From an uncultured delta proteobacterium (GTDB lineage Bacteria; Desulfobacterota; Syntrophia; Syntrophales; UBA2185), in the NCBI GenBank assembly GCA_963729715.1, contig CAVSPA010000010.1, forward strand, positions 32,001 through 96,000: a stretch of 64,000 bases of DNA, read 5' to 3'. Made by a program: the position numbers and the translations under genes. The notes beneath the pieces were generated by a model. That model saw only the letters and a program-made list of their open reading frames with translations, ran no database searches and was not told where the DNA came from. Below, in pieces: positions 40,506 to 62,411 of this stretch (positions are counted from its first letter, which is position 1; each line of letters begins with the position of its first letter).

Positions 40506-40526
40506 TCTTAAGCGGGAGGATGCATT

Positions 40527-40916: not shown

Positions 40917-40934
40917 ATTTGAAAGGCAATAATT

Positions 40935-41402: not shown

Positions 41403-41484
41403 GTCCGTGTTTTTCGGTCAGGTGTGATGAGCATTGTTGTGACTTAACGACTAATCTGGTTCTTTCATTATAGAGAGATTAGCA

Positions 41485-42009: not shown

Positions 42010-42021
42010 CCTTAGGAAAAT

Positions 42022-43670: not shown

Positions 43671-43722
43671 AGGCGGAACCAAGTTGCACAACTGCCGACT
43701 GGCAGTGCGTTCTTAAGAAGAT

Positions 43723-44112
43723 TTAACCATGTCTTCTCCGCCAGCGATTAAGCCTTTCAAACGCCCCGTCAACGGCCTTCAACAGCATTTCGGTCTGCAC
43801 CGGCTTTGTGAAAAAGTCGTCGAAGCCCGCCTCCCGGCATTCCTCAATATCATATAATGCAGCCCAACCGGTCATCGCGAAGATGATAGCAATGGGGTTG
43901 TCTTTTCTGATCTGTTTGCAAAGTTCTATGCCGTTCATGCCGAATAATTTGAGATCAAGAAATATTACCTCGATGTCTTCTTCTTTCAAAATTTCAAAGG
44001 CCGTCTCGGCCCCTTCTGCGAGTCGCACGTCATAGCCTTCGATGCCGAAAGCATCTTCAAGCAGATCGCGAACTGCCATTTCATCATCAACTACCAGAAT
44101 TTTCTTCGCCAT
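43723..44112 (-). CDS. Single-domain response regulator
   Basis: ILVVDDE, IFLDLKL..MNG, FFTKP. Confidence 0.9.
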   Translation of the reverse strand: MAKKILVVDDEMAVRDLLEDAFGIEGYDVRLAEGAETAFEILKEEDIEVIFLDLKLFGMNGIELCKQIRKDNPIAIIFAMTGWAALYDIEECREAGFDDFFTKPVQTEMLLKAVDGAFERLNRWRRRHG

Positions 44113-44147
44113 GAAACCGCTTCCCATCCCTCAATGCGCGGAGGTTG

Positions 44148-44915: not shown

Positions 44916-45215
44916 TCAGGAACCAAGGATCATCTTTCTTGCTCTGTCGAAAATATCCGTCCGAAAATCAGGGTAACCGGGAATAGTCTGGTTTAAATAT
45001 TTATTGATATACTGACTGTCATATAGCAGCATTCTTTCAAATTCTCCCACCTTTCCTGATTTCTGCAAATTTTTTTTAACCTCCGAGGTAAAAATTTCTT
45101 CAAGTTGTCGCGCGTAATCCTTGGTCAGTTGCTTCAGGAATTCCTCATCGCATCCACTTGATTTAATGTCCCCGTACATCTCGCGAACCCATTGTCTTGC
45201 GGTTTCCTCAAACAT
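44916..45215 (-). CDS. Hypothetical protein
   Basis: Uninterrupted helical ORF, co-oriented and closely spaced with the MBL gene. Confidence 0.65.
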   Translation of the reverse strand: MFEETARQWVREMYGDIKSSGCDEEFLKQLTKDYARQLEEIFTSEVKKNLQKSGKVGEFERMLLYDSQYINKYLNQTIPGYPDFRTDIFDRARKMILGS

Positions 45216-45453: not shown

Positions 45454-45907
45454 TTAAAATTGTTCCACAGGTTGAGTCGGGTCTTCATTCCGAATTCTGC
45501 GTTCGATATCTGAATGAGCACTCACTGCATTGATTCTTCTTTCATTCAGTTGCAAAACAAGTTTGAGCTTTTCAATTATTTTCCTTATTTGCCGTTAGCT
45601 GACAGCTTTCAACCGGAACCTTGCTTATTCCATTTGATGTTACATAATAGGTGAAAAACATTATAGGAGAGACAGAGGAGGCTGTCAACGATAATCGACT
45701 TGATTGTATTGTTCAGGGTTGTAGTATTATAGCTGTCGTGATAGTATCCGTGGCTATGTCGACAACTCACGTGTTATTAAATGGAAGTGCATCTGACTAT
45801 TCCCGCCTTACCGGTAGAGTAAAGGGGCACGACATGGGATACCTTCCCTGGCGGGAAGTCCCGTTCTGTGGGATGTGAGCCTCAATGCCGGGACTGGGGT
45901 ATAGTAA

Positions 45908-48814
45908 ATGTCTAAGAGATTGATGAATAAGGATAGATCGCAAGGGATGTCAAAATCGGAAGAAACAATATCCGAGCGCGACTGGACGGAAAAAAAGGTG
46001 CGCGAAGGTGAGATGCTTTTTCAAAGCCTCACTGAAAACTCCTTTGCTGCCGCATTTGTTGTCCAGAATGGGAAGTTTCGTTACATAAACACGAGTGCAG
46101 TTGCATATGCCGGTTATTCGGCGGGAGATCTCATAGGAAAGGACTCGGATATTATCGTCCATCCGGATGACAGGGCGATGGTTAAGGAGAAAGCTCGCGA
46201 GATGCTGCAGGGAAGAGATTCCGCGCCGTTCGGATTCCGGATGGTTACCAAGAAGGGAACGATAAGATCGATACTCCAAATAGTATCTCCTATCCAATAC
46301 GATGGCAAGCCGGCTCTCCTCGGCAATGCAATCGACGTAACACAGCGAAAGAAAGTGGAAGAGGCCCTCCGGGAGTCGGAGAGGCGTCTTGCGGATATCA
46401 TCGATTTTCTGCCGGACGCGACTCTCGCCATCGACCGTGAAGGGAGAGTTATTGCATGGAATAGGGCCATGGAGGAGATGACGGGGGTGAAGGCTGAGAA
46501 CATGCTGGGCAGGGGGGACTATGAGTATGCCCTGCCGTTCTATGGCAAGCGATGCTCTCTCCTGATCGATCAGGTGTTGAAGCCGGACAAGAAAACTGAA
46601 CCGCATTACCATACCGTTCCCGACAAGGAGCAGGACCTTCTGATTGTAGAGACATTGGTTCCCTCGTTAAAAGGAAAAAAAGCCTTTCTCTGGGCAAAAG
46701 CAAGCCCACTCTACGACAGCAAAGGAGAGCTATTCGGTGCAATCGAGTCGATGAGGGACATAACCAAACGCAAAGAAGCGGAAAAGATGTTGCAGGAATC
46801 CGAGGAAAAATACCGATCCCTCGCATCCACTATTGATTTGATGTATCTCGTTGACAAGGATTGCAGGTATCTGTTCATGAACGAGGGGCACTTATCAAGA
46901 TTTGGTATTCCTTTAGACAAGATGGAAGGGAGATTCTACAACGAGTTCCATTCCGAAGCGGATTCGAAAGAATTTTCGGACATCGTAAGACGTATCTTCG
47001 AGACGGGCCAAGCCGTCCAGCATGAGCATCGAAGCGGGAGAGACGGCAGGTACTTTCTCAGGACATTAAGCCCCGTTAAAGATCCTGATGGAAGAACAAC
47101 AGCGGTAACGGTTGTTTCCAAAGACATTACCGTGCGCACGCGGATGGAAGAGGCGCTGAGAGAATCAGAGAGGCGCCTCGCGGATATTATTGATTTTCTG
47201 CCGGACGCGACACTGGCAATTGACCTCACGGGTAAGATTATTGCGTGGAATCATGCCATAGAGGAAATGACTGGGGTTAAGGCTTCCGACATATTAGGGA
47301 AAGGGGACTATGAGTATGCCCTTCCGTTTTATGGTGTAAGAAGGCCTATCTTGATCGATCTTGTACTGAAGCCGGATAAAAAAATTGAGCAGAGTTACTA
47401 CTCTTTCCTGGAAAAGCAAAAGGAGCTCCTGATCGTAGAGACTTGGGTTCCTTTTCTCAAGTGGAAGAAGGCGTTTCTCTGGGCGAAGGCAAGTCCACTC
47501 TATAACAGCAAGGGCGATATCGTGGGTGCCATTGAGTCGATCAGGGACATTACGGAACGCAAAGAGGCGGAAAAAATGCTTCAGGAATCCGAGGAAAAAT
47601 ACCGATCCCTCGCGTCCAGTATTGATTTGATGTATCTCGTTGACAAGGATTGTAAATATTTGTTCATGAATGAAGGACTCCTATCGAGGTTTGGCATTTC
47701 CTTACGCGACGTGGAAGGAAAATCATATGAGGACTTCCACGCTGAAGAGGATGCGAGAGAATTTACGGAAATCATCAACCGTATTTTCAAAATGGGCCAG
47801 GCAATCCAGCATGAGCACAAGAGCGGAAGAGATGACAAGTACTTTCTCCGGTCATTAAGTCCCGTTAAGGATTCTGAAGGCAGGACAATAGCCGTAACGG
47901 TGGTTTCGAAAGACATTACCAAGCGCAAGAGGGCGGAAGAGGCACTGAGGGAGTCAGAGAGGCGCTTGTCGGACATTATTGATTTCTTGCCGGATGCTAC
48001 GCTTGCGATTAACCGGAAGGGCAGCGTTATTGCGTGGAATCGCGCCATAGAGGAAATGACAGGGGTCAAGTCTGTAGACATAGTGGGAAAGGGCGATTTT
48101 GAGTATGCCTTGCCGTTTTACGGTGTCCGCAGACCTATCTTGATTGATCTTGTCTTGAAAGCGGACAAAAAAATAGAGCGGAGTTTCTATTCTGTCTTCA
48201 AGAAGGAGGAGGATCATCTTATCGTCGAGACGTGGGTTCCCGCTCTGAAGGACAAGAGAGCCTTCCTTTGGGCAAAGGCGAGTCCGCTTTACGACAGCAA
48301 GGGGCGCATCGTCGGTGCCATAGAATCGATCAGGGACATTACTGTGCGCAAGCAGGCGGAGGAAATGCTGGAAAAGAGAGAAGTTGAGCTTGAGGCAAAA
48401 ACAAACGAACTTGAAGACCTGAATGCAGCCTTGAGGGTCTTGCTTAAGCAAAGAGAAGAGGATAGAAATGAGCTTGAGCAAAAGGTTCTGTCAAATGTGA
48501 AGCTCCTTATCCTGCCATATATTGAGAAATTGAAAAGCCGTATAGATCTGAAAGGCTCATCTTATGTCAATGTGCTCGAATCAAATCTGAGAGAAATCGT
48601 ATCACCCTTTGCACAAAAATTGTCAGTCAAGTACTTGAATCTTACCAACAGAGAGGTTCAGATCGCCAACCTCATAAAGGAGGGAAAAACGACTAAAGAA
48701 ATAGCGGCACTTCTTAACGTCTCCGAAAGTGCAGTCAATGTGTACCGGTACCATATACGACGCAAACTAAGCTTAACCAAGAAACATAATCTTCGCTCCT
48801 ACTTATCCACGTAA
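45908..48814 (+). CDS. Multi-PAS (six PAS/PAC) LuxR-family transcriptional regulator
   Basis: Repeated IIDFLPDATLAID/AWN.A.EEMTG and YLVDKDC.YLFMN PAS units; C-terminal LTNREVQIANLIKEGKTTKEIAALL...IRRKL. Confidence 0.93.
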   Translation: MSKRLMNKDRSQGMSKSEETISERDWTEKKVREGEMLFQSLTENSFAAAFVVQNGKFRYINTSAVAYAGYSAGDLIGKDSDIIVHPDDRAMVKEKAREMLQGRDSAPFGFRMVTKKGTIRSILQIVSPIQYDGKPALLGNAIDVTQRKKVEEALRESERRLADIIDFLPDATLAIDREGRVIAWNRAMEEMTGVKAENMLGRGDYEYALPFYGKRCSLLIDQVLKPDKKTEPHYHTVPDKEQDLLIVETLVPSLKGKKAFLWAKASPLYDSKGELFGAIESMRDITKRKEAEKMLQESEEKYRSLASTIDLMYLVDKDCRYLFMNEGHLSRFGIPLDKMEGRFYNEFHSEADSKEFSDIVRRIFETGQAVQHEHRSGRDGRYFLRTLSPVKDPDGRTTAVTVVSKDITVRTRMEEALRESERRLADIIDFLPDATLAIDLTGKIIAWNHAIEEMTGVKASDILGKGDYEYALPFYGVRRPILIDLVLKPDKKIEQSYYSFLEKQKELLIVETWVPFLKWKKAFLWAKASPLYNSKGDIVGAIESIRDITERKEAEKMLQESEEKYRSLASSIDLMYLVDKDCKYLFMNEGLLSRFGISLRDVEGKSYEDFHAEEDAREFTEIINRIFKMGQAIQHEHKSGRDDKYFLRSLSPVKDSEGRTIAVTVVSKDITKRKRAEEALRESERRLSDIIDFLPDATLAINRKGSVIAWNRAIEEMTGVKSVDIVGKGDFEYALPFYGVRRPILIDLVLKADKKIERSFYSVFKKEEDHLIVETWVPALKDKRAFLWAKASPLYDSKGRIVGAIESIRDITVRKQAEEMLEKREVELEAKTNELEDLNAALRVLLKQREEDRNELEQKVLSNVKLLILPYIEKLKSRIDLKGSSYVNVLESNLREIVSPFAQKLSVKYLNLTNREVQIANLIKEGKTTKEIAALLNVSESAVNVYRYHIRRKLSLTKKHNLRSYLST

Positions 48815-49241
48815 TTTTCGAAATGTTAAATATTCCTTAATATTACTTATAAATCTTTTAATATTGTCTTTTAGCATTTATATCTATATAAGGTGCTAAA
48901 CCTGATCGCAGTTTAAAGCTTCCAAATTATCCCTTTTAAGTTTTAGATACTTATATCATTAATAGATACCTACAGTTAGTACAGTATACCCCATGACCTG
49001 CATCAAGAGGCTCCACAGAATGACAGTGGCGGAATAATGGCGAAGTGGTTCATCCTTGAAATTGTAGTAGCATATTTTATATAACGCCAGATTTAAGCAG
49101 TCGTCACGGGGAAATTATAAACGTGTATTGAACATTAAGGAAGGAGGTGATCATCAGTAATAGATTAGAGTTATGATCCGGTAAGCGAATTCTGGAAGAC
49201 TTTAACAACTTTAATTGGAATCAAAAAAGGAGGATGACATT

Positions 49242-50534
49242 ATGGCAGGAGAATTACGGCCTCGTTGGGGTCAACCCATGACAGGCATTATTTCTACCAT
49301 AGCTTTTTTCTTGATCGCTTGGTTTACCTGGTATCTTTTCAGCGATCCGCGTGGACCGGTAGGCTTATTTCCGTATCCGTTTGTTCTGATACTCGCCTGG
49401 ATGATTCTGGTGGGTTTATGGCAGCACATGTTTTTGGGTGACTGGCCGTTTCAGAAATTATCGCCACCCGTCAGAGGGGTAGTGATGACTATTGTGAACC
49501 TGATTGGTGTGTGGTTTATGATCGAAGTCATCTTTAATCGGGTTTTAGGTCTGGGTTTCAATTTTTTAAGTCAATCCAATCTTAATGCACTGGCAGCGGC
49601 AGGGGCAACGGTGTTGCCCGAAGCATGCGGGAAGACACTTACTTTCGAAGCGATGAAAGGTGCACACTTTGCGCAGAGTGCAGGCGTAGGATTTGTGTTG
49701 ATTGGATTCTACGCGTATCCATTTGTTACAATCCTCTTCGGAAAATGGCCGATCCGTCCCAGTAACCTGGAGCAGCCCGCAGCCGGTGTTGCTGAAATCG
49801 GTTATTGCAGCTTGCTCGTCCTCTTCTTCTACGTCGTTCTTATCGTTCCCTTCTTTGGTTTGGTCTTCGAGAAGATGTTCGGTAACGCCTATGGGATGGC
49901 CACTCCCTGGTGGGGCGGTATAGGCGGCACCCCCCATCTGCACTGGGTATTCGGCTGGTGGGAGTGGGCGGTTATCGTCCTCTTCATGACGGCCAATGTC
50001 TGGCGTATGAAACCATGGTCGCTCATTAAGCTGCCGCAGCCCTGGAAAGGTCTCGTTTCTTTTTGCGGTACCATAGTACTTGCATACATTCTCGCTTTGA
50101 TTTGTCTGAAAATCATCCCGCTATGGGCGAACATGGATGATATCACTCACCATCTGCCCGCCGGAGATAAAGGAAATCCCATACGGTTCCTGTGGTATCA
50201 CTCAGCGGAGATCGCTGGCATGACCCTAATTCCTTTCCTGCAGTGGCACCACTATTGGGATGATATGTCCCCAGCGAAGAATGTAGATTCCTGGGGCGGA
50301 TTCTGGTTCCGAACTTTTGGTGTGGTTATTTTAGCCGCAGTTCTGTATGTGTGTTACTACTATTTGAACTTCGGTTACTGGGGACTGGGCAATCACCACA
50401 TGGAGCACGATATTGCTGAAAGGTTATTAAACGGTGAATCTCTCATCTGGAATTTCTGGTGGATTATCCCTCTTCTCTGGAATGAGTGGTTCTTCCACAA
50501 GTGGCCTTTCTACGTTCATGATGAGCATCATTAA
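49242..50534 (+). CDS. Trp-rich polytopic membrane protein, putative transporter
   Basis: Roughly ten hydrophobic segments, repeated WPF/WP loop motifs; SD AAGGAGG before ATG 49242. Confidence 0.8.
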   Translation: MAGELRPRWGQPMTGIISTIAFFLIAWFTWYLFSDPRGPVGLFPYPFVLILAWMILVGLWQHMFLGDWPFQKLSPPVRGVVMTIVNLIGVWFMIEVIFNRVLGLGFNFLSQSNLNALAAAGATVLPEACGKTLTFEAMKGAHFAQSAGVGFVLIGFYAYPFVTILFGKWPIRPSNLEQPAAGVAEIGYCSLLVLFFYVVLIVPFFGLVFEKMFGNAYGMATPWWGGIGGTPHLHWVFGWWEWAVIVLFMTANVWRMKPWSLIKLPQPWKGLVSFCGTIVLAYILALICLKIIPLWANMDDITHHLPAGDKGNPIRFLWYHSAEIAGMTLIPFLQWHHYWDDMSPAKNVDSWGGFWFRTFGVVILAAVLYVCYYYLNFGYWGLGNHHMEHDIAERLLNGESLIWNFWWIIPLLWNEWFFHKWPFYVHDEHH

Positions 50535-50547
50535 TTAATTCGAGTCG

Positions 50548-50578
50548 AGGCAAAGGGGCTTGTCAGCCCCTTTGCCTA
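50548..50578 (+). terminator. Stem-loop terminator
   Basis: aggcaaaggggct-tgtc-agcccctttgcct perfect stem. Confidence 0.7.
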
Positions 50579-50670
50579 ACGTTTAGGATGATGCTATCCG
50601 GTTACAGGTATTCATTTACGTGAACGTTGAATGTGCTAATTAGTAATGTTTTCTTGAAAAGGAGGAAGTT

Positions 50671-51726
50671 ATGGCGAGAATTCGCGGGAAAGCTAAGAAA
50701 GCTGAAATTATGACGCTTGAAGAAGCGGTCAAAAAATATATGCATAACGGGATACAGATTGCCTTCAGCGGGTTTACAGGGTTCAACAGAAACCCGGTGG
50801 CCTTTGCCTGGGAAGTGGTAAGACAAAAATACAAGGACCTGCATGTTATCGACAGGCATGGCAGTTGCTGTACCTGGCTTCTTAACACCGTCGGCGCTAT
50901 TAAAATTTATGAAACCGACTGGATGGGCTGGGGGGAGATGGCGGGAAAACTCGACATCAACATGGAAAGGATTTACAAGACAGGAAAGATAATACTTGAA
51001 GACTATGCTCATGGTGCAATGGCGATGAGATTCCTTGCAGGAGCCATCGGCGCGCCATTTATTCCCTATTATGCCCCGCTCGGATCAGACCTCTATAATC
51101 CGGACTATGATGCACTAGGGAGAGCTGGCCTCAGAAATGGTAAAAATCCGAGAATCCCAAAGAAGAAATTCATCCAGATTGAAGAGCCTTTCTTTGGCGA
51201 TGGAGAGGTCGTCCTCCTGCCTGCTGCAAGGCCCGAACTGGCAGTCATCCATGTATCTAAGGTGGGTGATAAAGGGACTGCGAGGTGGCGGGGCGTTGGA
51301 ACGATTGATAAAGAAATAGCCTTTGCCTGCGACAAGGTAGTGATCACGGCCGAAGAGGTTGTTCCCGAAGGAGAGATGAGGAAGGATCCGGAAGCCAATC
51401 AGATTCCCTTCTTCACTGTTGACGCCATTGTGGAAGTACCCTGGGGAGCTTTTCCGAGCGGTGTCCCTTTCTATTATGACTATGACGCGCCCTTTATGAG
51501 GGAGATGGATAAAGCATCGAGAAACGCGGAAGATTTGAAAAAATGGATCGATGAATGGGTTTTTGGCCCGAAGAACTGGGAGGAATTTATTGTTAAGCTC
51601 GGTGCAAAGAAATTGTTGTCCCTCAAAGCGGACAGTACTACCGGATACAGCACCAAGATGATGCGGGGAAAGAACCCGGCGCCGAGGATGAAGATGCCTT
51701 TGTCCGTCGCTCGAAGTGGCTATTAA
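50671..51726 (+). CDS. Family I CoA-transferase subunit A (glutaconate CoA-transferase-like)
   Basis: MTLEEAV..., RFLAGAIGAPF.P, AVIHV...D..G, VVITAEEVV, VDAIVEVPWGAFP..YYDYD. Confidence 0.88.
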   Translation: MARIRGKAKKAEIMTLEEAVKKYMHNGIQIAFSGFTGFNRNPVAFAWEVVRQKYKDLHVIDRHGSCCTWLLNTVGAIKIYETDWMGWGEMAGKLDINMERIYKTGKIILEDYAHGAMAMRFLAGAIGAPFIPYYAPLGSDLYNPDYDALGRAGLRNGKNPRIPKKKFIQIEEPFFGDGEVVLLPAARPELAVIHVSKVGDKGTARWRGVGTIDKEIAFACDKVVITAEEVVPEGEMRKDPEANQIPFFTVDAIVEVPWGAFPSGVPFYYDYDAPFMREMDKASRNAEDLKKWIDEWVFGPKNWEEFIVKLGAKKLLSLKADSTTGYSTKMMRGKNPAPRMKMPLSVARSGY

Positions 51727-51739
51727 AGGAAAGGGGGGA

Positions 51740-52642
51740 ATGAAAATGGCTAAAACAATGGAACAGTTGATGGAATTGATCGACAAGATACCCAATGAGA
51801 AGGCCAAAGCGGGTGAATTTATCCTGCCGGAATTGATGGCTATCGCCATTGCTCACGAGGTCCTGAACGATGATATCGTCTTCGCGGGTACGGGACTTCC
51901 CATGGTGGGGATTATGGCCGCCAATATGCTGAATGCACCCAACGCGGTGTTGATATACGAATCCGGGGTATGCGACGGGAAGACCATGCATGTGCCCATG
52001 TCCGTGGCTGACCAGAGGGCCGCCAATCTGGCTTCCACCCTTGGTGGACTGGTGGATACCTTCGGATATTATCTGCAGCAGGGTTTTGTGACCTTAGGGT
52101 TCCTCGGTGGGGCCGCTATTGATAAATACGGCGGCGTAAATGTAACATCTATCGGTGATTATTACGCCCCAGCACACCGCTTCACAGGGTCTGGGGGGAA
52201 TTCCGACATAGGAACCATGTCGAAAAGAGTTGCGTACATCATCCTTCAGGAAAAGAGGAGGTTCCTGGAGAGGAATGATTATACCACAACACCCGGTTGG
52301 TGGTGCTGGGATTTCAAGACACGGGAGTGGAAGCCGAAAAAGGAGGTCTGGAAAGGCACACCTTATGCGGATTGCGGCCCCTGTGGCGTGGTAACTAATA
52401 TGGGCGTATACCGGTTTGATGAAAAGGGAATCATCTACCTGGAAACCTGCCACCCCGGTATTAGCGTGGAGAAGATAAAAGAGAATTGTGGATTTGACTT
52501 GAATGTTTCAAAAATCAAAGGTGAGACGCCAAATCCGACTTACAAGGAGCTCTTTGTCCTCAGAGAGTTCGTTGATCCGGAATTAATCTTCCTGCCGGCG
52601 AAAACGGAATATCCCGCCGTGATCAAGTCAATTATTGGTTAG
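51740..52642 (+). CDS. Family I CoA-transferase subunit B
   Basis: ELMAIAIA...VFAGTGLP...LIYESG (catalytic Glu) ...GFLGGAAIDKYG.VN...GSGG..D. Confidence 0.9.
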   Translation: MKMAKTMEQLMELIDKIPNEKAKAGEFILPELMAIAIAHEVLNDDIVFAGTGLPMVGIMAANMLNAPNAVLIYESGVCDGKTMHVPMSVADQRAANLASTLGGLVDTFGYYLQQGFVTLGFLGGAAIDKYGGVNVTSIGDYYAPAHRFTGSGGNSDIGTMSKRVAYIILQEKRRFLERNDYTTTPGWWCWDFKTREWKPKKEVWKGTPYADCGPCGVVTNMGVYRFDEKGIIYLETCHPGISVEKIKENCGFDLNVSKIKGETPNPTYKELFVLREFVDPELIFLPAKTEYPAVIKSIIG

Positions 52643-52721
52643 AAAGTAACTCTGATTATGTGGATCCTGTCAACCTGCCGCTCAGGCAGGCTGGCAGGAT
52701 AATTAGAAGGGAGGAAGGCAT

Positions 52722-53888
52722 ACGAATTTAGATCTGATAGAAGAGCAAACAATTATTCAAGACACGGCTCGGCGCTTTGCGAAAACAGAGCTGGAACCTG
52801 TAGCAGCGCGGCTGGACCAGGTAGGTGATCGGGATACCTTTTTAAAAAATTTGAAGAAACTTGCCGAACTCGGTTTGATGGGCATCAATGTGAAGAGTGA
52901 ATATGGAGGCTCTGAAGCAGGTGTTGTGTCCTTCAGTCTGGCGGTTACGGAGATTGCGAGGGCTTGTGCTTCTACGGCAGTGACCATGTCCGTTAATAAT
53001 ATGGTTTGTGAAGTAATTCAGGCTATCGGCACTGAAGAGCAGAAGATGGTGTACATCCCGAAGATTTGCTCGGGTGAATACTATGCCGGCGGTTTTGGCT
53101 TGACGGAAACCGTGGCAGGCTCCGATGCCGCGGCGCTTCAGACGTCTGCCGTTCTGGACGGTGAGCAATGGGTTCTCAATGGGTCAAAGATGTTTATTAC
53201 CAGCGCCGAATACGCGGGCGTGTTTGTCGTTTGGGCGGTGACCGACAAGAAGGCGAAAAAAGGCAGCGGCATAAGCACATTTCTCGTTGAAAACGGTGCG
53301 CCTGGTCTTAAGATCGGACGGTTAGAGCACAAAATGGGGCAGCACGCTTCTTCAACAAATGAACTGATCTTTGAAGACTGCCGGATACCGAAATCAGCCC
53401 TGATGGGGAAATTGAATGGCGGCTTCAAGACGGCCACAGGAGAACTCGCCGGTGGACGCATAGGCATAGGATCTCTTGGTTTGGGTATCGGACTTGCGGC
53501 GATGGATTATGCCACACGATATGCAATAGAAAGAAAGCAATTCGATCAGTCCATAACGAATTTCCAGGCAATCCAGTGGATGATTGCAGAGTCCTATACG
53601 GAGCTCGAGGCGGCAAGACTTCTTCTCATGAATGCAGCGTTCAAGAAAGAGCAGGGCAAGCCCTTTGCAAGGGAAGCGTCCATGGCAAAGTATTTTGCTA
53701 CCGAAGCGGCCGATAGGGCGTGTTTCAACGCGATTCAGATGCTTGGGGGGTATGGATACACCAATGAATTCCCCGTTGAACGTTATGCGAGAGATGTCCG
53801 TATTACATTGATCTATGAAGGCACCAACCAGATCCAACGGATGATAGTTGCAAGGGACATCATAAACAGCCTGAAAGAATCGGCATAA
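52722..53888 (+). CDS. Acyl-CoA dehydrogenase (short/branched-chain type); apparent start codon is ACG
   Basis: FGLTE..AGSDA, NGSKMFIT, GRIGIG, GGYGY..E.PVER..RD.RI..IYEGTNQIQR; frame open upstream of 52851 to an ACG at 52722 behind GGAGG. Confidence 0.92.
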   Translation, partial: TNLDLIEEQTIIQDTARRFAKTELEPVAARLDQVGDRDTFLKNLKKLAELGLMGINVKSEYGGSEAGVVSFSLAVTEIARACASTAVTMSVNNMVCEVIQAIGTEEQKMVYIPKICSGEYYAGGFGLTETVAGSDAAALQTSAVLDGEQWVLNGSKMFITSAEYAGVFVVWAVTDKKAKKGSGISTFLVENGAPGLKIGRLEHKMGQHASSTNELIFEDCRIPKSALMGKLNGGFKTATGELAGGRIGIGSLGLGIGLAAMDYATRYAIERKQFDQSITNFQAIQWMIAESYTELEAARLLLMNAAFKKEQGKPFAREASMAKYFATEAADRACFNAIQMLGGYGYTNEFPVERYARDVRITLIYEGTNQIQRMIVARDIINSLKESA

Positions 53889-54180
53889 ACGGACCTCTGA
53901 GCGTGTGACGCTCAAGGTTCTGCATATAGGCAGTTTAGGTTTCTGACTCATAGAAGATTAGCTGAAATCTTCAGATTACAAGGCCGAGTGGAAGTTTTCG
54001 CTATTGATGACCTGCGACTGCCGAAGCCATATTGTTTGTGAGATAGTGACGGAAGAGAACCTTCGACCGTTTAGTTTAAACAGTTGCTTTGAAAATTGTC
54101 ATCGATAGCGCTCATGCCATATTCTCACTTTTCCGATGACAAAATCCGATTTTGCAAAGCTCTAAAAAATGGGGGTAGGA

Positions 54181-55536
54181 ATGGAAAAAGTGCCGCAGAA
54201 ATTGGAAAAGACCAGGGCAGAGATGTATGCTCATGCGCCAATCTCAAAGTTCGGTCAGAGAAAACCTGATTTCTCAACCATGGGACGGAAAATAAAAAAT
54301 CAATTTAAGAGCGTCAGAGAAGTTGTCGTTGTAGAAGCATGCCGGACGCCTTACGGCAGATTCGGAGGAGCGCTAAAAGATTTTACAGCTCCTGAGCTCG
54401 GTGCCTTGGCAATCAAGGAAGTAATCAGACGGACAAACGGAAAGGTTAAACCATCTGACGTGGATTACGTTTTCCTGGGGCAGGTAGTTCCTGCAGGGTG
54501 CGGGCAGATCCCCAGCAGGCAGGCTACTATCCTGGCGGGTCTCCCCGAATCCATTCCCTCCATTACAATCAATAAAGTGTGTTCTTCAGGTATTAAGCCG
54601 ATCGACCTCGCAGTCCAGATGATACAACTGGGACGGGCCGAGATTTGTGTAGCAGGCGGCCAGGAGAGTATGAGCAACGGCCCGTATGCGTTGCCCGAGA
54701 TGAGATGGGGCGCAAGGATGGGCCTTCCGACCAGGCCCGCGCTTGATTTGGTTGTATACGACGGGCTTTGGGACGCATTCTATAACCGGCATATGGCCAT
54801 TCACGGCTCTGAGGTTGGAGATGAATTTGGCGTTACACGGCAGGACCAGGATGAATGGGCCCTTCGCTCCCAACTTGCAGCAGTTGAAGCCATGAAGACC
54901 GGGAAATTGGACGATGAAATATTTCCCGTCGAGGTGAAGCAGGGGAAAAAAGTCGTCATCTTTGACAAAGACGAAGGACCGAGGCCGGAAACAACCTTGG
55001 ACGGCTTAGCCAAGCTGCCGCCGGTCTTCAATCACAAGAGCCCGGTTACCGGGGGCCCCGGAAGCGTCACAGCCGGCAATGCGCCGGGCGTAAATGATGG
55101 CGGAGACGTGTGTCTCTTAATGAGTAGGCAAATGGCAGACAAGCTGGGCATAAAACCCCTGTTTACCATACTCGATTACGCTGAGGTTTCCCAGCCGCCG
55201 AAGGATATTGCGACAGTGCCGGGACTTGCAATCAAGAAACTTCTCGAGCAGAATGGCATGACCCTCGATCAGATAGATCTGCTGGAAATCAATGAAGCCT
55301 TTGCTGCCGTTGTCTTGGTCAGCGCCCGCAACATTTTGGGCATGAGCAAGGAAGATATGTATAAGAGGGTCAATGTGAATGGAAGCGCCATAGCATATGG
55401 CCATCCTATAGGTGCGACGGGCGCGAGGATCGTCATGACTCTTGCCTATGAACTGCGGCGAAGAGGTGGCGGGATCGGGATATGCGGAATCTGCTCGGGT
55501 CATGCTCAAGGTGACGCGATGCTGATCAAAGTATGA
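54181..55536 (+). CDS. Thiolase (acetyl-CoA C-acyltransferase) with N-terminal extension
   Basis: TINKVCSSG, AGGQESMS, TAGNAPGVNDG, EINEAFA, VNVNGSAIAYGHPIGATG, CSG. Confidence 0.95.
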   Translation: MEKVPQKLEKTRAEMYAHAPISKFGQRKPDFSTMGRKIKNQFKSVREVVVVEACRTPYGRFGGALKDFTAPELGALAIKEVIRRTNGKVKPSDVDYVFLGQVVPAGCGQIPSRQATILAGLPESIPSITINKVCSSGIKPIDLAVQMIQLGRAEICVAGGQESMSNGPYALPEMRWGARMGLPTRPALDLVVYDGLWDAFYNRHMAIHGSEVGDEFGVTRQDQDEWALRSQLAAVEAMKTGKLDDEIFPVEVKQGKKVVIFDKDEGPRPETTLDGLAKLPPVFNHKSPVTGGPGSVTAGNAPGVNDGGDVCLLMSRQMADKLGIKPLFTILDYAEVSQPPKDIATVPGLAIKKLLEQNGMTLDQIDLLEINEAFAAVVLVSARNILGMSKEDMYKRVNVNGSAIAYGHPIGATGARIVMTLAYELRRRGGGIGICGICSGHAQGDAMLIKV

Positions 55537-55686
55537 ACGATTGACTTTCCCTGAGGCTCGAGTTCTTTCTTCCGACCACATCGTCGCGCTTATCTCCGAT
55601 GAAATGGTACCGGGAAAAGACCTCTCAGTTGCCTTCATGGAAAGCTGATATTCTGAAAACAAAAAAATAACGGGAGGAAGGTAGTG

Positions 55687-56544
55687 ATGGCAGTTAAGAC
55701 ATTCGGCGTTATCGGAGCGGGTCAGATGGGCAACGGCATAGCTCAGGTTGCTGCAAGCCCAGGGGGACTGAATGTAATCATGAATGATATTGCAGACCAG
55801 TTTGTAGACAAGGGGTACGATACGATTTCGAAAAATCTGGACCGCCTTGTTGCCAAGGAAAAGCTGACGGCTGACCAGAAAAAAGAAATCATGAGCCGCA
55901 TCAAGAAGAGCACAAAGCTGGAAGACATGAAGGACGCCGATTTTGTTGTGGAGGCGGCGACTGAGCGAGAGGATCTCAAGCTTGGTGTCTTCAGAAAGCT
56001 TGATGAAGTCTGCAAGCCAGGGGTCATCCTTGCCACGAATACGTCCTCTATTCCCATTACGAGGATAGCCGGTGCAACAAAGAGGCCTGCCTTAGTCATC
56101 GGGATGCATTTTATGAACCCCGTTCCCGTGATGAGACTCGTAGAGATCATCAGGGGTTTGGCTACCTCTCAAGAGACGTACAACATGACAGAGGCCCTGT
56201 CCAAGCAGTTCGGGAAGGTTCCTGTCGAGTGCAATGACTTTCCGGGATTTCTATCGAACAGGATACTTATGCCCATGATCAATGAGGCCGTTTATACCCT
56301 GATGGAAGGAGTGGGCACGCCCAAGGCCATTGATGATATCATGGTATTGGGCATGAATCACCCCATGGGTCCTCTCGCGTTGGCTGACCTGATTGGTCTC
56401 GATACATGCTGGGCCATAATGGACGTTCTCTACAAAGGATTTGGCGATTCCAAGTACCGTCCCTGTCCGCTCCTGAAGAAATACGTGGATGCAGGCTACA
56501 TGGGAAGAAAGACGGGAAAAGGATTCTACGATTACGGCAAGTAA
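55687..56544 (+). CDS. hbd: 3-hydroxybutyryl-CoA dehydrogenase
   Basis: [58 protein letters not shown]. Confidence 0.94.
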
Positions 56545-56740
56545 TGTCTGCATACGAAAAATATTCTTCGTGACGGGAATATACTTTCGACAGTTGTAGA
56601 GATAGCTTCAGCGGGGAGTGCAGCCTAAGATCGTGGCTGCAAGCCTCTGTATGAAATGTCCAGAGGTTGACGAGATAAATAATATGCACTCGGAAAGTTT
56701 TTCCGAGGCATCAGAAGAAATGGAAAAGGGGGTACAGCGG

Positions 56741-57523
56741 ATGGAATTCAAGAACCTCTTGTTTACAGTTGAGGATGGTGTCGCTACGATAACGTTTAAC
56801 AGGCCCAAGGCGTTGAATGCGATGAATACGGAAACCATGAAGGAGCTTATGGATGCGGCTACACTGTGTAGGAATGATGACGCCGTAAAGGTTCTCATCC
56901 TCACGGGGTCAGGAGACAAGGCCTTTGTAGCAGGCGCTGATATATCAGAGATGCAGAACCTGCGGCCAAAAGAGGCCCTTGCCTTTATGGAACTTGGTAA
57001 TGAGACGTTGCGATTGATTGAAACGCTGCCCAAGCCTTCCATTGCTGCCGTGAACGGTTTCGCCCTGGGCGGCGGCACGGAGATCTCCATGTCTTGCGAT
57101 ATGAGATTTGCATCGGAAACAGCCCGTTTCGGCCAGCCGGAAATACTGATCGGATTGATACCGGGCTGGGGAGGAACTCAGAGGCTTTCACGGTTAATAG
57201 GAATGGGAAGGGCCAAGGAACTCATAATGGGTGGGGAGCAGATTGATGCGAAAAGGGCTTTCGACATTGGTCTTGCAAACAGGGTATTTCCCCTCGATCA
57301 GCTTCTCCCGGAAACGAAAAAATTCGCGCGGAAACTGGTCAACATGCCTGGTTTCGCCCTAAAGATGGCCAAGCATTCGATCAACTATGGTTATGATCTC
57401 GCGCTTGATAACGGGATCAGACTCGAAATGGAATGCTGTGCCCAGTGCTTCAGCACAGATGATCAGAAAGAAGGTATGAAGGCTTTCCTCGAAAAGAGAA
57501 AGCCTGTTTACATGGGAAAGTGA
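56741..57523 (+). CDS. crt: Enoyl-CoA hydratase (crotonase)
   Basis: NRPKALNA, AFVAGADI, AAVNGFALGGGTE, FGQPE..IG.IPGWGGTQRL. Confidence 0.93.
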   Translation: MEFKNLLFTVEDGVATITFNRPKALNAMNTETMKELMDAATLCRNDDAVKVLILTGSGDKAFVAGADISEMQNLRPKEALAFMELGNETLRLIETLPKPSIAAVNGFALGGGTEISMSCDMRFASETARFGQPEILIGLIPGWGGTQRLSRLIGMGRAKELIMGGEQIDAKRAFDIGLANRVFPLDQLLPETKKFARKLVNMPGFALKMAKHSINYGYDLALDNGIRLEMECCAQCFSTDDQKEGMKAFLEKRKPVYMGK

Positions 57524-57580
57524 TTCGCCGTTTTATAAGTGCATTAATAAAACATTATTCTAAAAGGGGGGTTATGAGCC

Positions 57581-58729
57581 ATGAATTTTGGTTTAACAGA
57601 TGATCAACGTGACGTGAGGGAGATGGTAACGAAGTTCGCAGAGCAGCAGATTAAACCTATCGCTGCAGAGTTGGATAAGACCCACAGGCATCCGGAAGAA
57701 ATCTGCCGTAAGCTCGGCGAAATGGGTATCATGGGAATCGCAGTTCCCCAGGAGTATGGCGGTGCGGGCATGGATACAGTGACATACGTCCACAGCCTGA
57801 TTGCGATTTCCAAGGCATGTGCCAGTTGCGGTGTTATTGTGTCGGTCAACAATTCCCTTTACGGGTATCCCGTATTGGCCTTTGGAACGGAAGAACAGAA
57901 GAAGAGATACCTTACTCCTGTGGCAGGCGGGAAGGTCGAAGGATGCTATGGGTTAACAGAGCCAAGCGCCGGGTCGGATGCTGCCGCACTGAAGTGTCGC
58001 GCTGTATTGAAAGGTGACAAATATATAGTTAACGGGACCAAAATATTTATAACGAACGGTAATGTGGCGCACTACTGCGTTTTAGCAGTCACGACCGATC
58101 CCGCGTTAGGATATAAAGCGGTCATTAATCTTATCGTGGATATGAAAAACACCCCGGGCTTTAAGGTAGGCAAGGTCGAGGAAAAGATGGGAATCCTTGC
58201 GTCCGGTACGGCTGAGCTTGTCTTCGAGGACGCTGAGGTGCCGGCGGCAAACCTCCTGGGTAAGCCGGGACAGGGGTTCAAGCAGATGATGATGGGACTG
58301 GATGCAGGGAGAATCGGCATAGGCTCTCAGGCCTGCGGTATCGGAAAGGCCGCTCTCGAAGATGCCCTCGCTTATGCAAAAGAGAGGGTGCAGTTCGGCA
58401 AGCCCATTGCAACGTTTCAGGCGATCCAGTTCAAGCTCGCCGATATGGCGATGGAACTCGATGCAGCGGAATTGATGCTGCTCCGCGCCGCTTGGATGGA
58501 AGACAACCATCTCGATTTTGAGAAGGAATCGGCCATGGCCAAGTGCTATGCATCCGACGTGGCGATGAAGGCCGCGGTTGAATGCGTACAGATATTCGGC
58601 GGCTACGGCTACACAAAAGAGTATCCGGCCGAAAGACACATGCGGGATGCGAAGATCTGCCAGATCTATGAAGGGACGAACGAGATTCAGAGGGTGGTTA
58701 TCTCGAGAAAACTTTTGAGTATGAGATAA
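57581..58729 (+). CDS. Acyl-CoA dehydrogenase (butyryl-CoA dehydrogenase-like)
   Basis: YGLTEPSAGSDA, NGTKIFITNG, LDAGRIGIG, GGYGYTKEYPAERHMRDAKICQIYEGTNEIQR. Confidence 0.95.
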   Translation: MNFGLTDDQRDVREMVTKFAEQQIKPIAAELDKTHRHPEEICRKLGEMGIMGIAVPQEYGGAGMDTVTYVHSLIAISKACASCGVIVSVNNSLYGYPVLAFGTEEQKKRYLTPVAGGKVEGCYGLTEPSAGSDAAALKCRAVLKGDKYIVNGTKIFITNGNVAHYCVLAVTTDPALGYKAVINLIVDMKNTPGFKVGKVEEKMGILASGTAELVFEDAEVPAANLLGKPGQGFKQMMMGLDAGRIGIGSQACGIGKAALEDALAYAKERVQFGKPIATFQAIQFKLADMAMELDAAELMLLRAAWMEDNHLDFEKESAMAKCYASDVAMKAAVECVQIFGGYGYTKEYPAERHMRDAKICQIYEGTNEIQRVVISRKLLSMR

Positions 58730-58743
58730 CGCTGTCCATAAGA

Positions 58744-58778
58744 CTCAGCTCATCTCCGTAAGAAGCAGATGAGCTGAG
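58744..58778. terminator. Stem-loop between convergent genes
   Basis: ctcagctcatct...agatgagctgag perfect 12-bp stem. Confidence 0.65.
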
Positions 58779-58823
58779 ATTACGGAAGAGACTTTCGTTT
58801 TTCGGTAGATGCCTGGGTGAAAA

Positions 58824-59123
58824 TTATTTCTCGATTCTGAAGGGTGAGAACTCGTACTCTTTTTTCTCGACTGCGAAAGCCACCCTGTCTTCTTCGTTAG
58901 CTGTGAGTTTGCCCTCTATAATGCGACGGCAGCCGAAATCGAAGAAACTCACCTGGTGAGTGGGGGTGTCATTTTCATCCATCTGCTTGTAGTACTGCTC
59001 TTTTTCAGACGGAGTCAGCTCCCGGACGACGAGTTTCTGGCATCGTTCCCTGGTTTCCCATTCACCCTGGCGTATGGTGACTCGGTAATTGCCGTGAAAC
59101 TTTACAGGCATCTTGATTTTCAT
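58824..59123 (-). CDS. Hypothetical protein
   Basis: MKIKMPVKFHG...; SD GGAGG upstream. Confidence 0.65.
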   Translation of the reverse strand: MKIKMPVKFHGNYRVTIRQGEWETRERCQKLVVRELTPSEKEQYYKQMDENDTPTHQVSFFDFGCRRIIEGKLTANEEDRVAFAVEKKEYEFSPFRIEK

Positions 59124-59328
59124 CACTGTACCTCCAGATTTCGTGCTGTTTCTAAGAAGGTTGCATAGCATAACTTTGGACGGTTGTCCATTTATTGATA
59201 ACAGCGAGCTTGCGGGCATTCTTTTTCTGTTTGACAAACCAGCGTAGAGGAGAGAGATTCCGCGGATTCGATAGTTAGGTACTTATCGATAATAGCAATT
59301 ATGTAAGATTTATTGGAAGGAGGGTAAT

Positions 59329-61011
59329 ATGTATTTTGCAAAAGAGGTGCTGAGCCAATCAAGCGAGCTCAGGAAAAAATGGGAGGATGAAGTCCGGAGG
59401 GTGGTCAGTAAAGTTCCTGACCAGAGGGAACGATGGTCCACAGTTTCAGATCTCGAGATCAGGAGGCTTTATGGTCCTGATGACATAAAGGACATGGACT
59501 TTGTCCGTGATATCGGATACCCAGGCCAATTTCCATACTTGCGTGGCAATCAGGCGACGGGTTATCGCGGACGATTCTGGACGTTCAGGATGTTTTCCGG
59601 CATGGGAAGCGCTGCGGAGACCAACAAACGGTGGCACATGCTTCTCAAAGAAGGACAGACAGGCCTCAGTACAGCATTTGATTTCCCGACTCTCATGGGC
59701 TATGACACGGACTCCCCCAAGGCCCGCGGCGAGTGCGGGAAGTGCGGCGTTGCCATAGATACCCTTGAAGATTTTCTGCAACTGGTGGACGGGATTCCTA
59801 TGGATGAGATTACTACGTCCATGACCATCAATCCTCCGGCTACTGTACTCTGGGCGATGTACTGTGCAGCGGCACAGATCAAGGGCATACCTCTTACCAA
59901 GATAGGCGGCACGATTCAGAATGACATGCTGAAGGAATTCATTGCACAGAAGACTTTAATGTGCCCGCCGGAGCCGTCCGTCAGGCTCGTCAGCGACACC
60001 GTTGAGTTCGGCACGAAGTATGTCCCGAGATGGAACACCATCAGCATTAGCGGGTACCATATCAGGGAAGCCGGTTCCACGGCGGTTCAGGAGCTTGCCT
60101 TTACCCTTAGAGACGGCATGGAGTATGTGGAGGACGTGATCAACCGGAAGGGGTTGAACGTCGATGAATTCGCTCCACGGCTTTCATTTTTCTTCAATTC
60201 ACATGTAGATTTCTTTGAGGAGATTTGTAAGATGCGCGCAGCCCGGAGGATCTGGGCAAAAGTTATGCGGGACCGCTATAAGGCGAAGGACCAGAGATCG
60301 TGGTGGATGCGTTTCCATACTCAGACCGCCGGATGTTCGCTGACGGCGCAGCAGCCTTACAACAACGTCGTCAGGACGGCCACGCAAGCCCTTGCCGCTG
60401 TCCTTGGCGGAACCCAGTCACTGCATACCAATTCCCTCGACGAGGTGATGTGCCTCCCCTCGGATCACGCCGTGCAGATTGCGCTTCGTACGCAGCAGAT
60501 CATCGCGGAAGAGACCGGCGCTGCCAACACGATCGATCCTCTGGCGGGCTCGTACTTCGTCGAAGCATTAACCAACGAGATGGAAGAGCAGACATGGGAT
60601 TACATCAACAAGATCGATGAGATGGGCGGCATGGTGGCTGCAATAGAAAAAGGGTTCCCGCAGCTCGAGATAGCCGATGCAGCCTACAAGTTTCAGAGAC
60701 AGATAGACTCCTGCGAAAAGATTATGGTCGGCGTCAACAAATATGTGACAGAAGAAGAGATACCCATCCCTCTTTTAGAGATTGATGATAAAGTTGAAGA
60801 GGATCAGATCGCGCGGTTGAATGCGGTCCGCAGAAAAAGAGACAACAAGGCTGTCAAGAAGAGTCTTGACGACATTAAGAACGCCTGCAAGAAGGGTGAG
60901 AATGTCATGCCTTCCTGCATCGAGGCAGTGAAGAACATGGCGAGTGTCCAGGAGATATGCGACGTCTATCGTGAGATCTATGGCGAGTATCGCGATCCGG
61001 GACTCTATTAG
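59329..61011 (+). CDS. B12-dependent acyl-CoA mutase large subunit, isobutyryl-CoA-mutase-type specificity residues
   Basis: MCM-family motifs (GLSTAFD.PT..GYD.D, GTIQND.LKE, ISISGYHIREAG); WTFRMFSG and KEFIAQK. Confidence 0.92.
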   Translation: MYFAKEVLSQSSELRKKWEDEVRRVVSKVPDQRERWSTVSDLEIRRLYGPDDIKDMDFVRDIGYPGQFPYLRGNQATGYRGRFWTFRMFSGMGSAAETNKRWHMLLKEGQTGLSTAFDFPTLMGYDTDSPKARGECGKCGVAIDTLEDFLQLVDGIPMDEITTSMTINPPATVLWAMYCAAAQIKGIPLTKIGGTIQNDMLKEFIAQKTLMCPPEPSVRLVSDTVEFGTKYVPRWNTISISGYHIREAGSTAVQELAFTLRDGMEYVEDVINRKGLNVDEFAPRLSFFFNSHVDFFEEICKMRAARRIWAKVMRDRYKAKDQRSWWMRFHTQTAGCSLTAQQPYNNVVRTATQALAAVLGGTQSLHTNSLDEVMCLPSDHAVQIALRTQQIIAEETGAANTIDPLAGSYFVEALTNEMEEQTWDYINKIDEMGGMVAAIEKGFPQLEIADAAYKFQRQIDSCEKIMVGVNKYVTEEEIPIPLLEIDDKVEEDQIARLNAVRRKRDNKAVKKSLDDIKNACKKGENVMPSCIEAVKNMASVQEICDVYREIYGEYRDPGLY

Positions 61012-61035
61012 GACTGATTGAAGGAGGAGATGGTA

Positions 61036-61446
61036 ATGGCTAAGAGAAAAATTCGTGTTATGGTAGCAAAACCAGGACTTGACGGTCATGACCGGGGCGC
61101 CAGGGTTTTAGCCAGGTGTTTCCGGGACGCTGGCTTTGAAGTAATATATACGGGGTGTCATCAGACACCGGCGATGATTGCAGCGTCGGCGATCCAGGAA
61201 GACGTGGATCTCGTAGGCTTGAGCTGTCTATCGGGGGCGCATCGGTATTTATTTCCCCAGGTGGTTAATCTATTGAAGGAGAAAGGTGCTGACGATATCA
61301 CCGTTATCGGCGGGGGAATCATCCCCGAACAAGATTTTCAGAAACTATATGACGCGGGAATCAAGGCGATCTTCGTGCCGGGTACTACCCTGGATACGAT
61401 CGTGAATTGGGTTAACAACAATGTAAAGCCGGTGGAAAGAAAATAA
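61036..61446 (+). CDS. Cobalamin-binding small subunit of the acyl-CoA mutase
   Basis: AKPGLDGHDRGA...GLS.LSGAH...GGGIIP. Confidence 0.95.
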   Translation: MAKRKIRVMVAKPGLDGHDRGARVLARCFRDAGFEVIYTGCHQTPAMIAASAIQEDVDLVGLSCLSGAHRYLFPQVVNLLKEKGADDITVIGGGIIPEQDFQKLYDAGIKAIFVPGTTLDTIVNWVNNNVKPVERK

Positions 61447-62411
61447 TGGAGAGAGGTAAGAAGATTAAGGCAGGGGACATCCGTACAGCCTCCCGCCTCA
61501 TACGAGACATAGAAGACAGTATACCCGAAGCAAAAGCAACGATTAAACATATTTTCCCCTATACGGGTAAGGCCCAGGTAGTAGGGATTACCGGTTCTCC
61601 TGGGGCCGGAAAGAGCACTATTGTTGACGGTCTCATTGAGACAAGCCGGAAAAAGGAAAAAACGGTAGGTGTTCTCGCCGTTGATCCGACGAGTCCCTTT
61701 ACGGGGGGTGCTACGCTCGGTGATAGGATCCGTATGCAGCGCCATTCGGAGGACACAGGCGTCTTCATACGGAGCCTCGCCACGCGGGGTTCGCTCGGCG
61801 GTCTCTCCAAGGCAGTTGGCGATGCCATCCATGTCATGGATGCAATGGGGAAAGACGTCATATTCGTAGAAACTGTGGGTACCGGTCAACAGGAGGTAGA
61901 GATCATACACTATGCCCATACGGTAGTAGTTGTCCTCGTGCCTGGTATGGGTGATGAAATTCAGGCAATCAAGGCGGGCATCATGGAGATCGCCGACATA
62001 TTCGTTATCAATAAGGCGGATCGTGATGGTGCGCAAAAACTCCAGAGGGAATTGATGACTATGATCGAAATGTCATCGATTCCTCCCGGGGGTTGGAAGC
62101 CGCCTGTCGTTACAATCAGGAATTCCTTTAAGCCGGAAGAATTCGAAGAGGACCTTGGGACACTATCTTCCAAGGTCCACGAACACTATGAGTTTCTCGT
62201 AAGCAGTGATCTTATCGGTGACAGGCAGCGGCGCAAGAGGCTGCATGAACTCAATGAGGCCCTGCGATTCAGCATCCTCGAACCTGTATTAGAGATGCTC
62301 GTCAAAACCGGTGAACTCGACAGCATGGTCGAAAAACTGCTGAAGAAGGAATCAGATCCTTCCAGTCTGGCCGAAGAAATAGCGAAGAAGTATTTACAGG
62401 GGTGTTTTTAA
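61446..62411 (+). CDS. meaB: Mutase-associated GTPase chaperone MeaB/ArgK
   Basis: GITGSPGAGKST, AVDPTSPFTGGA.LGDRIRM, ETVGTGQ, VINKAD. Confidence 0.95.
   Translation: MERGKKIKAGDIRTASRLIRDIEDSIPEAKATIKHIFPYTGKAQVVGITGSPGAGKSTIVDGLIETSRKKEKTVGVLAVDPTSPFTGGATLGDRIRMQRHSEDTGVFIRSLATRGSLGGLSKAVGDAIHVMDAMGKDVIFVETVGTGQQEVEIIHYAHTVVVVLVPGMGDEIQAIKAGIMEIADIFVINKADRDGAQKLQRELMTMIEMSSIPPGGWKPPVVTIRNSFKPEEFEEDLGTLSSKVHEHYEFLVSSDLIGDRQRRKRLHELNEALRFSILEPVLEMLVKTGELDSMVEKLLKKESDPSSLAEEIAKKYLQGCF

Follow-up and report, generated by a model that had tools for sequence, protein, structure and literature searches.

A gene cluster at positions 45908–62411 of the window (the whole 64,000-nt stretch analysed, from contig CAVSPA010000010.1 of an uncultured Syntrophales bacterium) probably takes up, activates, isomerises and beta-oxidises short branched acids, of which isobutyrate is the most likely and 2-methylbutyrate a possible one. 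The original prediction, made from the sequence alone, had listed twelve genes here, all of which were recovered in open reading frame (ORF) and Pfam/NCBIfam profile checks; its more conservative reading, the conversion of isobutyrate or 2-methylbutyrate to linear acyl-coenzyme A (acyl-CoA), is supported by the residues of the mutase and by the gene neighbourhoods. In the proposed pathway, a membrane protein would import the branched acid, a CoA-transferase would activate it using acetyl-CoA, and a B12-dependent mutase, supplied with its cofactor by MeaB, would turn isobutyryl-CoA into butyryl-CoA, from which one of two acyl-CoA dehydrogenases (ACAD2), Crt, Hbd and a thiolase would yield two acetyl-CoA. 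2-Methylbutyryl-CoA would be processed via the other dehydrogenase (ACAD1) and these enzymes, yielding acetyl-CoA together with propionyl-CoA, the latter being handled by a separate methylmalonyl-CoA pathway, while an ACG or CTG start would keep ACAD1 low.

The mutase is specified by three genes, coding for the large subunit (mutA, 59329–61011, TIGR00641), the B12-binding small subunit (mutB, 61018–61446, TIGR00640, with the motif DGHDRG) and a MeaB-type GTPase chaperone (61446–62411, TIGR00750 over the cut-off, with a P-loop and NKAD); these and the other genes of the cluster are on the plus strand unless stated otherwise. The nine pocket positions of the large subunit are F89, A116, T166, Q197, Q207, Y243, H244, Q332 and N368, with F89, A116 and Q207 contained in the motifs RMFSG, STAFD and IAQK, respectively; the isobutyryl-CoA mutase IcmF (4xc6) has RMFAG and QGQN at the places corresponding to the first and the last. 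The window genes thus combine the features of an isobutyryl-CoA mutase, namely Phe89, Gln207, a B12 domain with DxHxxG and a MeaB chaperone. Solved methylmalonyl-CoA mutases (MCM) show instead Y at position 89 and R at 207, and Leu89, which we take to be the mark of pivalyl-CoA mutases, is not the residue found. The best PDB match, the 2-hydroxyisobutyryl-CoA mutase HcmA (4r3u), contains RQIAG and STDFD (I89, D116, Q207), and this identity was rejected because the window enzyme has F89 and A116 in place of I and D. Nor is it a fused IcmF, since it is split in three ORFs and scores 336 bits with NF045497, against a cut-off of 1500. In a quick tree, supported by SH-aLRT only, rooted on IcmF with long-branch warnings and used solely for this grouping, the mutases from the window, from the inferred Smithellaceae (our family f14) and from Syntrophomonadaceae formed a well-supported clade; those from Syntrophomonadaceae are 81–86 % identical to the window mutase.

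Comparison of host-family loci, picked for long contigs and not at random, revealed the order CoA-transferase, ACAD1, thiolase, Hbd, Crt, ACAD2, a small ORF, mutA, mutB and meaB in all 12 of them, as far as each reaches, and the grouping is therefore not due to chance. A regulator gene and the membrane gene precede this array in eight of the 12. The closest named loci, assigned to Syntrophales or Syntrophaceae, contain the same cluster with 84–99 % identity among the enzymes. None of 48 mutA-centred loci from other families, picked in the same manner, contains the whole set, mutB following in 47 and meaB in 46, and in 19 of 21 thiolase-centred loci outside the host family (f1) and f14 the next gene is an orthologous Hbd or Crt. 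Several cluster genes look split, as if by frameshifts, in the relatives L122 and G183:C179, by either assembly error or decay.

The membrane protein (49242–50534), with seven hydrophobic segments over the threshold, had been called uncharacterised, and this stands: the best Pfam match was no better than E 0.016, no NCBIfam family was matched, an Atlas search returned hypothetical clusters only, Foldseek against the PDB gave no match at E ≤ 0.001, the best Z of the VIA wide structure search (6.1, to a designed helical barrel) was within background, and self-BLAST found no internal repeat. Its structural model is all-helical (pLDDT 76.6). Among the best 80 of 273 relatives, a mutase is present within the locus in 53, and in 45 of 54 when the count is restricted to loci of ≥ 15 kb. 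All but one of these 53 mutases carry isobutyryl-type motifs, seven being of the host type, 33 of a sister type with RMFAG/AQK, mostly from Syntrophobacteraceae, and 12 fused IcmF, two of which were tested and scored over the NCBIfam cut-off. In Desulfobulbaceae and Desulfobaccales, the membrane gene and an ACAD1 orthologue (59–73 % identity) are found with IcmF, a second dehydrogenase, thiolase, Hbd and Crt; the IcmF loci have other activating enzymes, either a ligase (best match MbcS, under the cut-off) or family III CoA-transferases. Three gene arrangements with three forms of mutase point to one function, with the limitation that their carriers are kin and not independent. The membrane protein is thus likely a transporter or a sensor for the branched acid, judging from gene context only. 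In a deltaproteobacterial locus, a YcaO-type gene (L009:13934–15130; best match methanogenesis marker 1, under the cut-off) is situated downstream of the membrane gene and the CoA-transferase.

Several observations weigh against the proposed breakdown of isobutyrate. The use of residues 89, 116 and 207 as specificity determinants is our assumption, and we know of no member of the window mutase clade that has been assayed; the nearest characterised enzymes are only about 45 % (HcmA, MCM) or about 32 % (IcmF domain) identical. The membrane gene lacks a mutase in 27 of the 80 loci, many of them short, and is itself missing in six of 18 host-family genomes. The named Syntrophothermus protein (Slip_0760) was not among the 120 matches listed for the mutase, and the thiolase does not have the DFP motif of human T2 thiolase. 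Finally, the pocket residues cannot separate isobutyryl-CoA from pivalyl-/isovaleryl-CoA or from C5 and C6 substrates; excerpts of PMC10481361 describe IcmF as acting on both isobutyryl-CoA, which gives butyryl-CoA, and pivalyl-CoA, which gives isovaleryl-CoA.

The genes for activation code for a family I CoA-transferase, with a GctA-like alpha subunit (50671–51726; PF01144; 1poi_A, E 3e-52) and a beta subunit (51716–52642; PF01144) containing a YESG motif, whose Glu is presumably the catalytic residue. The closest solved structure is glutaconate CoA-transferase 1poi. The thiolase (54169–55536; TIGR01930 over the cut-off) shows C138, NEAF, H412 and C442, and its best family and best structure are PRK08235 and 5lp7, which we take to be of the Bacillus MmgA type. 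At the position of the DFP loop it reads D-I-A, which differs both from DFP and from the MG seen in 4wyr; the DFP motif forms the 2-methyl pocket of human T2 thiolase (PMC6790690, in part). Its first ca. 45 residues (54169–54310) constitute an N-terminal extension, which orthologues throughout the order retain and the aligned solved thiolases lack. In several families, although not in the host family, a second thiolase-like gene (37–41 % identical) directly follows the thiolase orthologue (L155, L158–L161, L163, L164, L166–L171 and L174).

A different role, which we consider unlikely, is that the cluster finishes longer iso/anteiso methyl-branched fatty acids or amino-acid-derived acyl-CoAs made in the cell, free isobutyrate not being its main substrate. 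This would agree with the MmgA type of the thiolase, with the retention of mutase and thiolase orthologues in most of the order where the membrane gene or the CoA-transferase is missing, and with the many further acyl-CoA dehydrogenases and thiolases encoded elsewhere in the host genome (G000). However, in the host family the CoA-transferase and the membrane gene are situated directly upstream of the beta-oxidation genes, a placement consistent with a free acid being imported and activated.

The two acyl-CoA dehydrogenases are, as had been proposed, different from each other (42 % identical). ACAD1 (52722–53888, 388 aa) is likely a branched-chain acyl-CoA dehydrogenase, and its true start is an ACG codon at 52722, located 7 nt after GGAGG, where no ATG, GTG or TTG exists; the first TTG occurs 43 codons further on. 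We compared the start among orthologues, using 39 rows from which eight duplicates were removed. All 11 distinct regions of the host clade have a near-cognate codon behind a purine-rich site (ACG in eight, CTG in three), whereas ATG occupies this position in all 20 sequences from outside that clade. For the 42 codons that precede the first TTG, pN/pS is 0.10, versus 0.07 for the remainder (10 orthologues against the window), and the leader is hence under purifying selection; the same value ruled out that ACAD1 is a pseudogene. Low translation of ACAD1 is a likely effect of the ACG/CTG start. This family-wide usage offers a clear natural example of a conserved near-cognate start, and gene callers truncate the protein by 43 codons.

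The host belongs to an uncultured Syntrophales family different from the Smithella-like f14, in a survey of the order comprising 339 genomes. It is not a Smithella, because genes for DsrA, CODH/ACS and MotAB scored over the cut-off in G000, whereas excerpts of PMC13685792 report that Smithella lost flagella and sulfite reduction and has no CO dehydrogenase. No AprA or acetate kinase (AckA) over the cut-off was found in G000. At G000:C7:498650–500879, the DsrA gene has a DsrB-like neighbour, and with AprA not found the host is possibly a sulfite reducer. The reversibility of all the reactions, together with CODH/ACS, two ETF pairs and the lack of an acetate kinase over the cut-off, would also be compatible with a flux in the opposite direction, in which the cluster would dispose of electrons by turning acetyl-CoA into butyrate and isobutyrate for export. 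We consider this very unlikely, because the order and its relatives are fatty-acid oxidisers (PMC7382037, in part), the module recurs in sulfate reducers and the host itself has DsrA.

The more ambitious of the two original readings was that the cluster constitutes the C6 route of propionate dismutation of Smithella; the lack of a methylmalonyl-CoA epimerase in the window had also been noted. The epimerase is indeed absent there, but this is uninformative because the full methylmalonyl-CoA set is held elsewhere in the genome. The single epimerase match in G000 is on contig C5, in a compact cluster (G000:C5:344334–357114) with genes for Mdh, Sdh/Frd, fumarase, two of carboxyltransferase type, and SucCD, and a separate Tyr89/Arg207 mutase (motif RQYAG), with its own MeaB, is found at G000:C7:147524–149203. 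Propionate oxidation by the classical route may thus be possible in the host family, in which 20 of 22 genomes contain the epimerase. Applied to this host, the dismutation scheme would have the thiolase condense two propionyl-CoA, leading after reduction to 2-methylvaleryl-CoA, which the mutase would convert to hexanoyl-CoA for beta-oxidation to acetyl-CoA and butyryl-CoA. The enzyme classes suffice on paper, with one dehydrogenase each for a reductive and an oxidative arm, the thiolase loop is not of the straight-chain MG type, and the CoA-transferase is 80–85 % identical to those of Syntrophobacteraceae. Nevertheless, we judge it extremely unlikely: the host family kept the methylmalonyl-CoA route, the sole genus shown to dismutate has no orthologues of four of the components (see below), and the mutase has the pocket residues of IcmF, while mutases beside alkane-activation genes have altered Q332 and N368 loops.

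The five mutase large subunits of G000 comprise the F89 type of the window, the Y/R type and three with Leu89 (G000:C7:308704–310386, C4:666047–667732 and C5:599119–600651). The Leu89 copy on C7, which shares 77 % identity with the window mutase, shows an altered SLYE motif besides RMLSG. That on C4 adjoins a paralogue (65–70 %) of the window CoA-transferase, and in locus L007 a similar unit is accompanied by a copy of the membrane gene (83 %). In C5, the mutase pair is interrupted by a transposase-like ORF.

We examined the cluster genes in 28 genomes, at least 90 % complete, of genus g34 of f14, which may or may not include S. propionica itself. Genus g34 was taken as Smithella because the epimerase, present in 5 of 28 g34 and 31 of 33 g36 genomes, follows the pattern published for Smithella and UBA8904 (PMC13685792, in part), and because the named matches nearest to its mutase (87–89 %) include four from 'Smithella sp.' and one from 'Smithellaceae'. 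The searches, which covered the genes named in the next sentence, used strict E-value cut-offs, so that absence means the lack of a close orthologue and not of any enzyme of the class. Orthologues of the membrane gene, CoA-transferase alpha, ACAD1 and Hbd were found in none of the 28 genomes, those of ACAD2 in 14, of the thiolase in 27 and of the mutase in all 28. In each of 20 f14 loci the mutase trio is separate from the other cluster genes, as is the thiolase in each of 18 loci from g34–g36. The cluster is thus not kept as a unit in the inferred Smithella, and the proposal that it is the dismutation route of that genus failed on this and on the nature of the host. At the family level, orthologues of the window mutase and thiolase occur in 111 of 116 and 69 of 81 cases in f14, and in none of seven in f15.

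Dismutation through a C6 intermediate (de Bok 2001, as summarised in excerpts of PMC10180298) needs a Claisen-type condensation and a rearrangement of the carbon skeleton, for which the window contains enzymes of the adequate types. The statement that its enzymes are unassigned agrees with PMC13685792, which in the excerpted text calls them never identified; likewise, literature searches, with supplements of bioRxiv preprints outside their scope, returned no genetic assignment of the route and no isobutyryl-CoA mutase in Syntrophales. A search of the mutase family over the 28 g34 genomes gave 47 matches, and the 46 loci inspected cover all the genomes. The F89/A116 orthologue (74–81 % identical) is present in all of them, partial in three, and is the only mutase found in 15; in addition, six contain a Y89/R207 type and seven a divergent type with altered Q332 and N368 loops, which in most cases adjoins glycyl-radical-activase-like genes. 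Should a B12-dependent acyl-CoA mutase carry out the rearrangement, this orthologue would be the only universal candidate.

The supplement (S1) of PMC13685792, in the part consulted, lists the Smithellaceae orthogroups OG0000199 'hcmA', OG0000249 'hcmB', OG0000322 'argK' and OG0000123 'mmgA', present in about 89–98 % of Smithella ('hcmA' in 89 %) and absent from Syntrophus. By presence profile, which agrees with the f14 and f15 counts above, and not by sequence, 'hcmA' and 'mmgA' are probably the orthologues of the window mutase and thiolase. Since the mutase has F89/A116 and not the I/D of HcmA, its designation as 'hcmA' seems to be an artefact of best-hit naming; in Smithella, the genes are scattered. 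A tentative extension, improbable as it stands, is that Smithella uses the F89/Q207 mutase, so far hidden under the name hcmA, for the rearrangement and the MmgA-type thiolase with its N-terminal extension for the condensation, and that the window keeps both joined to activating and redox partners and to a membrane protein of new fold. Two propionyl-CoA would give 2-methyl-3-oxovaleryl-CoA and, after reduction, 2-methylvaleryl-CoA, to be converted to hexanoyl-CoA. Against this, the same mutase clade occurs in most families of the order and in Syntrophomonadaceae, which are oxidisers of butyrate and branched acids (PMC5017805, in part), the pocket is unchanged from IcmF, and no obvious growth on propionate was reported for an enrichment of Smithella that has two mutases (PMC5606693, in part). 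Finishing of branched fatty acids accounts for the distribution equally well. Even so, the census narrows the enzymes described as never identified to two testable proteins, the mutase and the thiolase, as candidates for the dismutation steps.

The remaining genes of the cluster are those for Hbd, a 3-hydroxyacyl-CoA dehydrogenase (55684–56544; PRK05808, 451 bits with a cut-off of 408), for the enoyl-CoA hydratase Crt (56741–57523; ECH_1, best match PRK05809, under the cut-off) and, by family profiles, for the butyryl-CoA-dehydrogenase-like ACAD2 (57581–58729). The regulator (45908–48814) is, as expected from the original prediction, a one-component protein with six PAS domains and a LuxR-type helix-turn-helix, showing six TIGR00229 and six PAS_4 stretches and GerE at residues 911–961; its gene contains 789-nt internal repeats. 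Since it was also found upstream of ACAD1-thl-hbd-crt in L176, a locus from another family, we infer that it likely controls the cluster. The initial list of twelve genes had missed a conserved one, on the minus strand between ACAD2 and mutA (58824–59123), coding for a 99-aa hypothetical protein with homologues (59–95 % identical) near mutA in four families; no family was assigned to it, and its Atlas matches, under 0.9, are leads only. Because this gene points away from mutA, the stretch probably comprises at least two transcription units.

Promoter and terminator scans gave numbers of sites at chance level (26 versus 21.2 expected, and 18 versus 17.2 expected), and a hairpin at 58782–58798 was accordingly dropped as evidence. 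RNA runs, which were picked using this very stretch, contained only small shares (0.05–0.09); contigs from relatives, mostly 88–99 % alike and carrying no information on strand or level, fell on the cluster 65, 59, 68 and 41 times and on a neighbouring control 23, 24, 37 and 18 times, and were not used as support. A perfect TTGACA-17-TATAAT site on the minus strand (45660–45688) points away from the regulator and faces a 99-aa ORF (44916–45215) and a gene of the metallo-beta-lactamase fold. Further upstream (38271–44127) there are chemotaxis and motor genes, CheA-like, CheY-like, CheX-like, PilZ-like, MotA and MotB, of which MotA and MotB are the ones tested with profiles.

If the cluster acts on branched acids as proposed, a common uncultured Syntrophales family would degrade branched C4 and C5 acids, and a membrane protein family that is widespread and has no known fold would provide the first candidate for a transporter associated with isobutyryl-CoA mutases. 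The pathway itself has been predicted before: a mutase feeding isobutyrate into beta-oxidation was proposed for Syntrophothermus and a member of the Syntrophaceae (PMC5017805, in part), the same route was predicted for 'Ca. Caldisyntrophus' and Syntrophomonas BUT1, and its genes were reported as expressed in an uncultured Syntrophales family (PMC7382037, in part). The cluster is therefore a real, conserved module for branched fatty acids in an order where such a pathway was already predicted, and Fig. S2 of PMC5017805, a mutase tree, may already place its mutase clade. Compared with IcmF (4xc6), the window mutase has the same residues at the nine pocket positions and M88, the DxHxxG motif, a partner GTPase and beta-oxidation neighbours, but IcmF is one fused chain, whereas the window enzyme is encoded by three genes, is about 32 % identical to the IcmF mutase domain and is closer to HcmA and MCM; Streptomyces IcmA, from the two-subunit IcmA/IcmB form, was outside this comparison. 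A further similar system is that of Slip_0757–0760 from Syntrophothermus lipocalidus and of 'Ca. Caldisyntrophus', in which a split mutase with MeaB is likewise predicted to feed isobutyrate to beta-oxidation (PMC5017805, in part). Unlike Slip_0757–0760, the window cluster has no adenosyltransferase gene, and it adds the CoA-transferase, two dehydrogenases, thiolase, Hbd, Crt, the regulator and the membrane gene.

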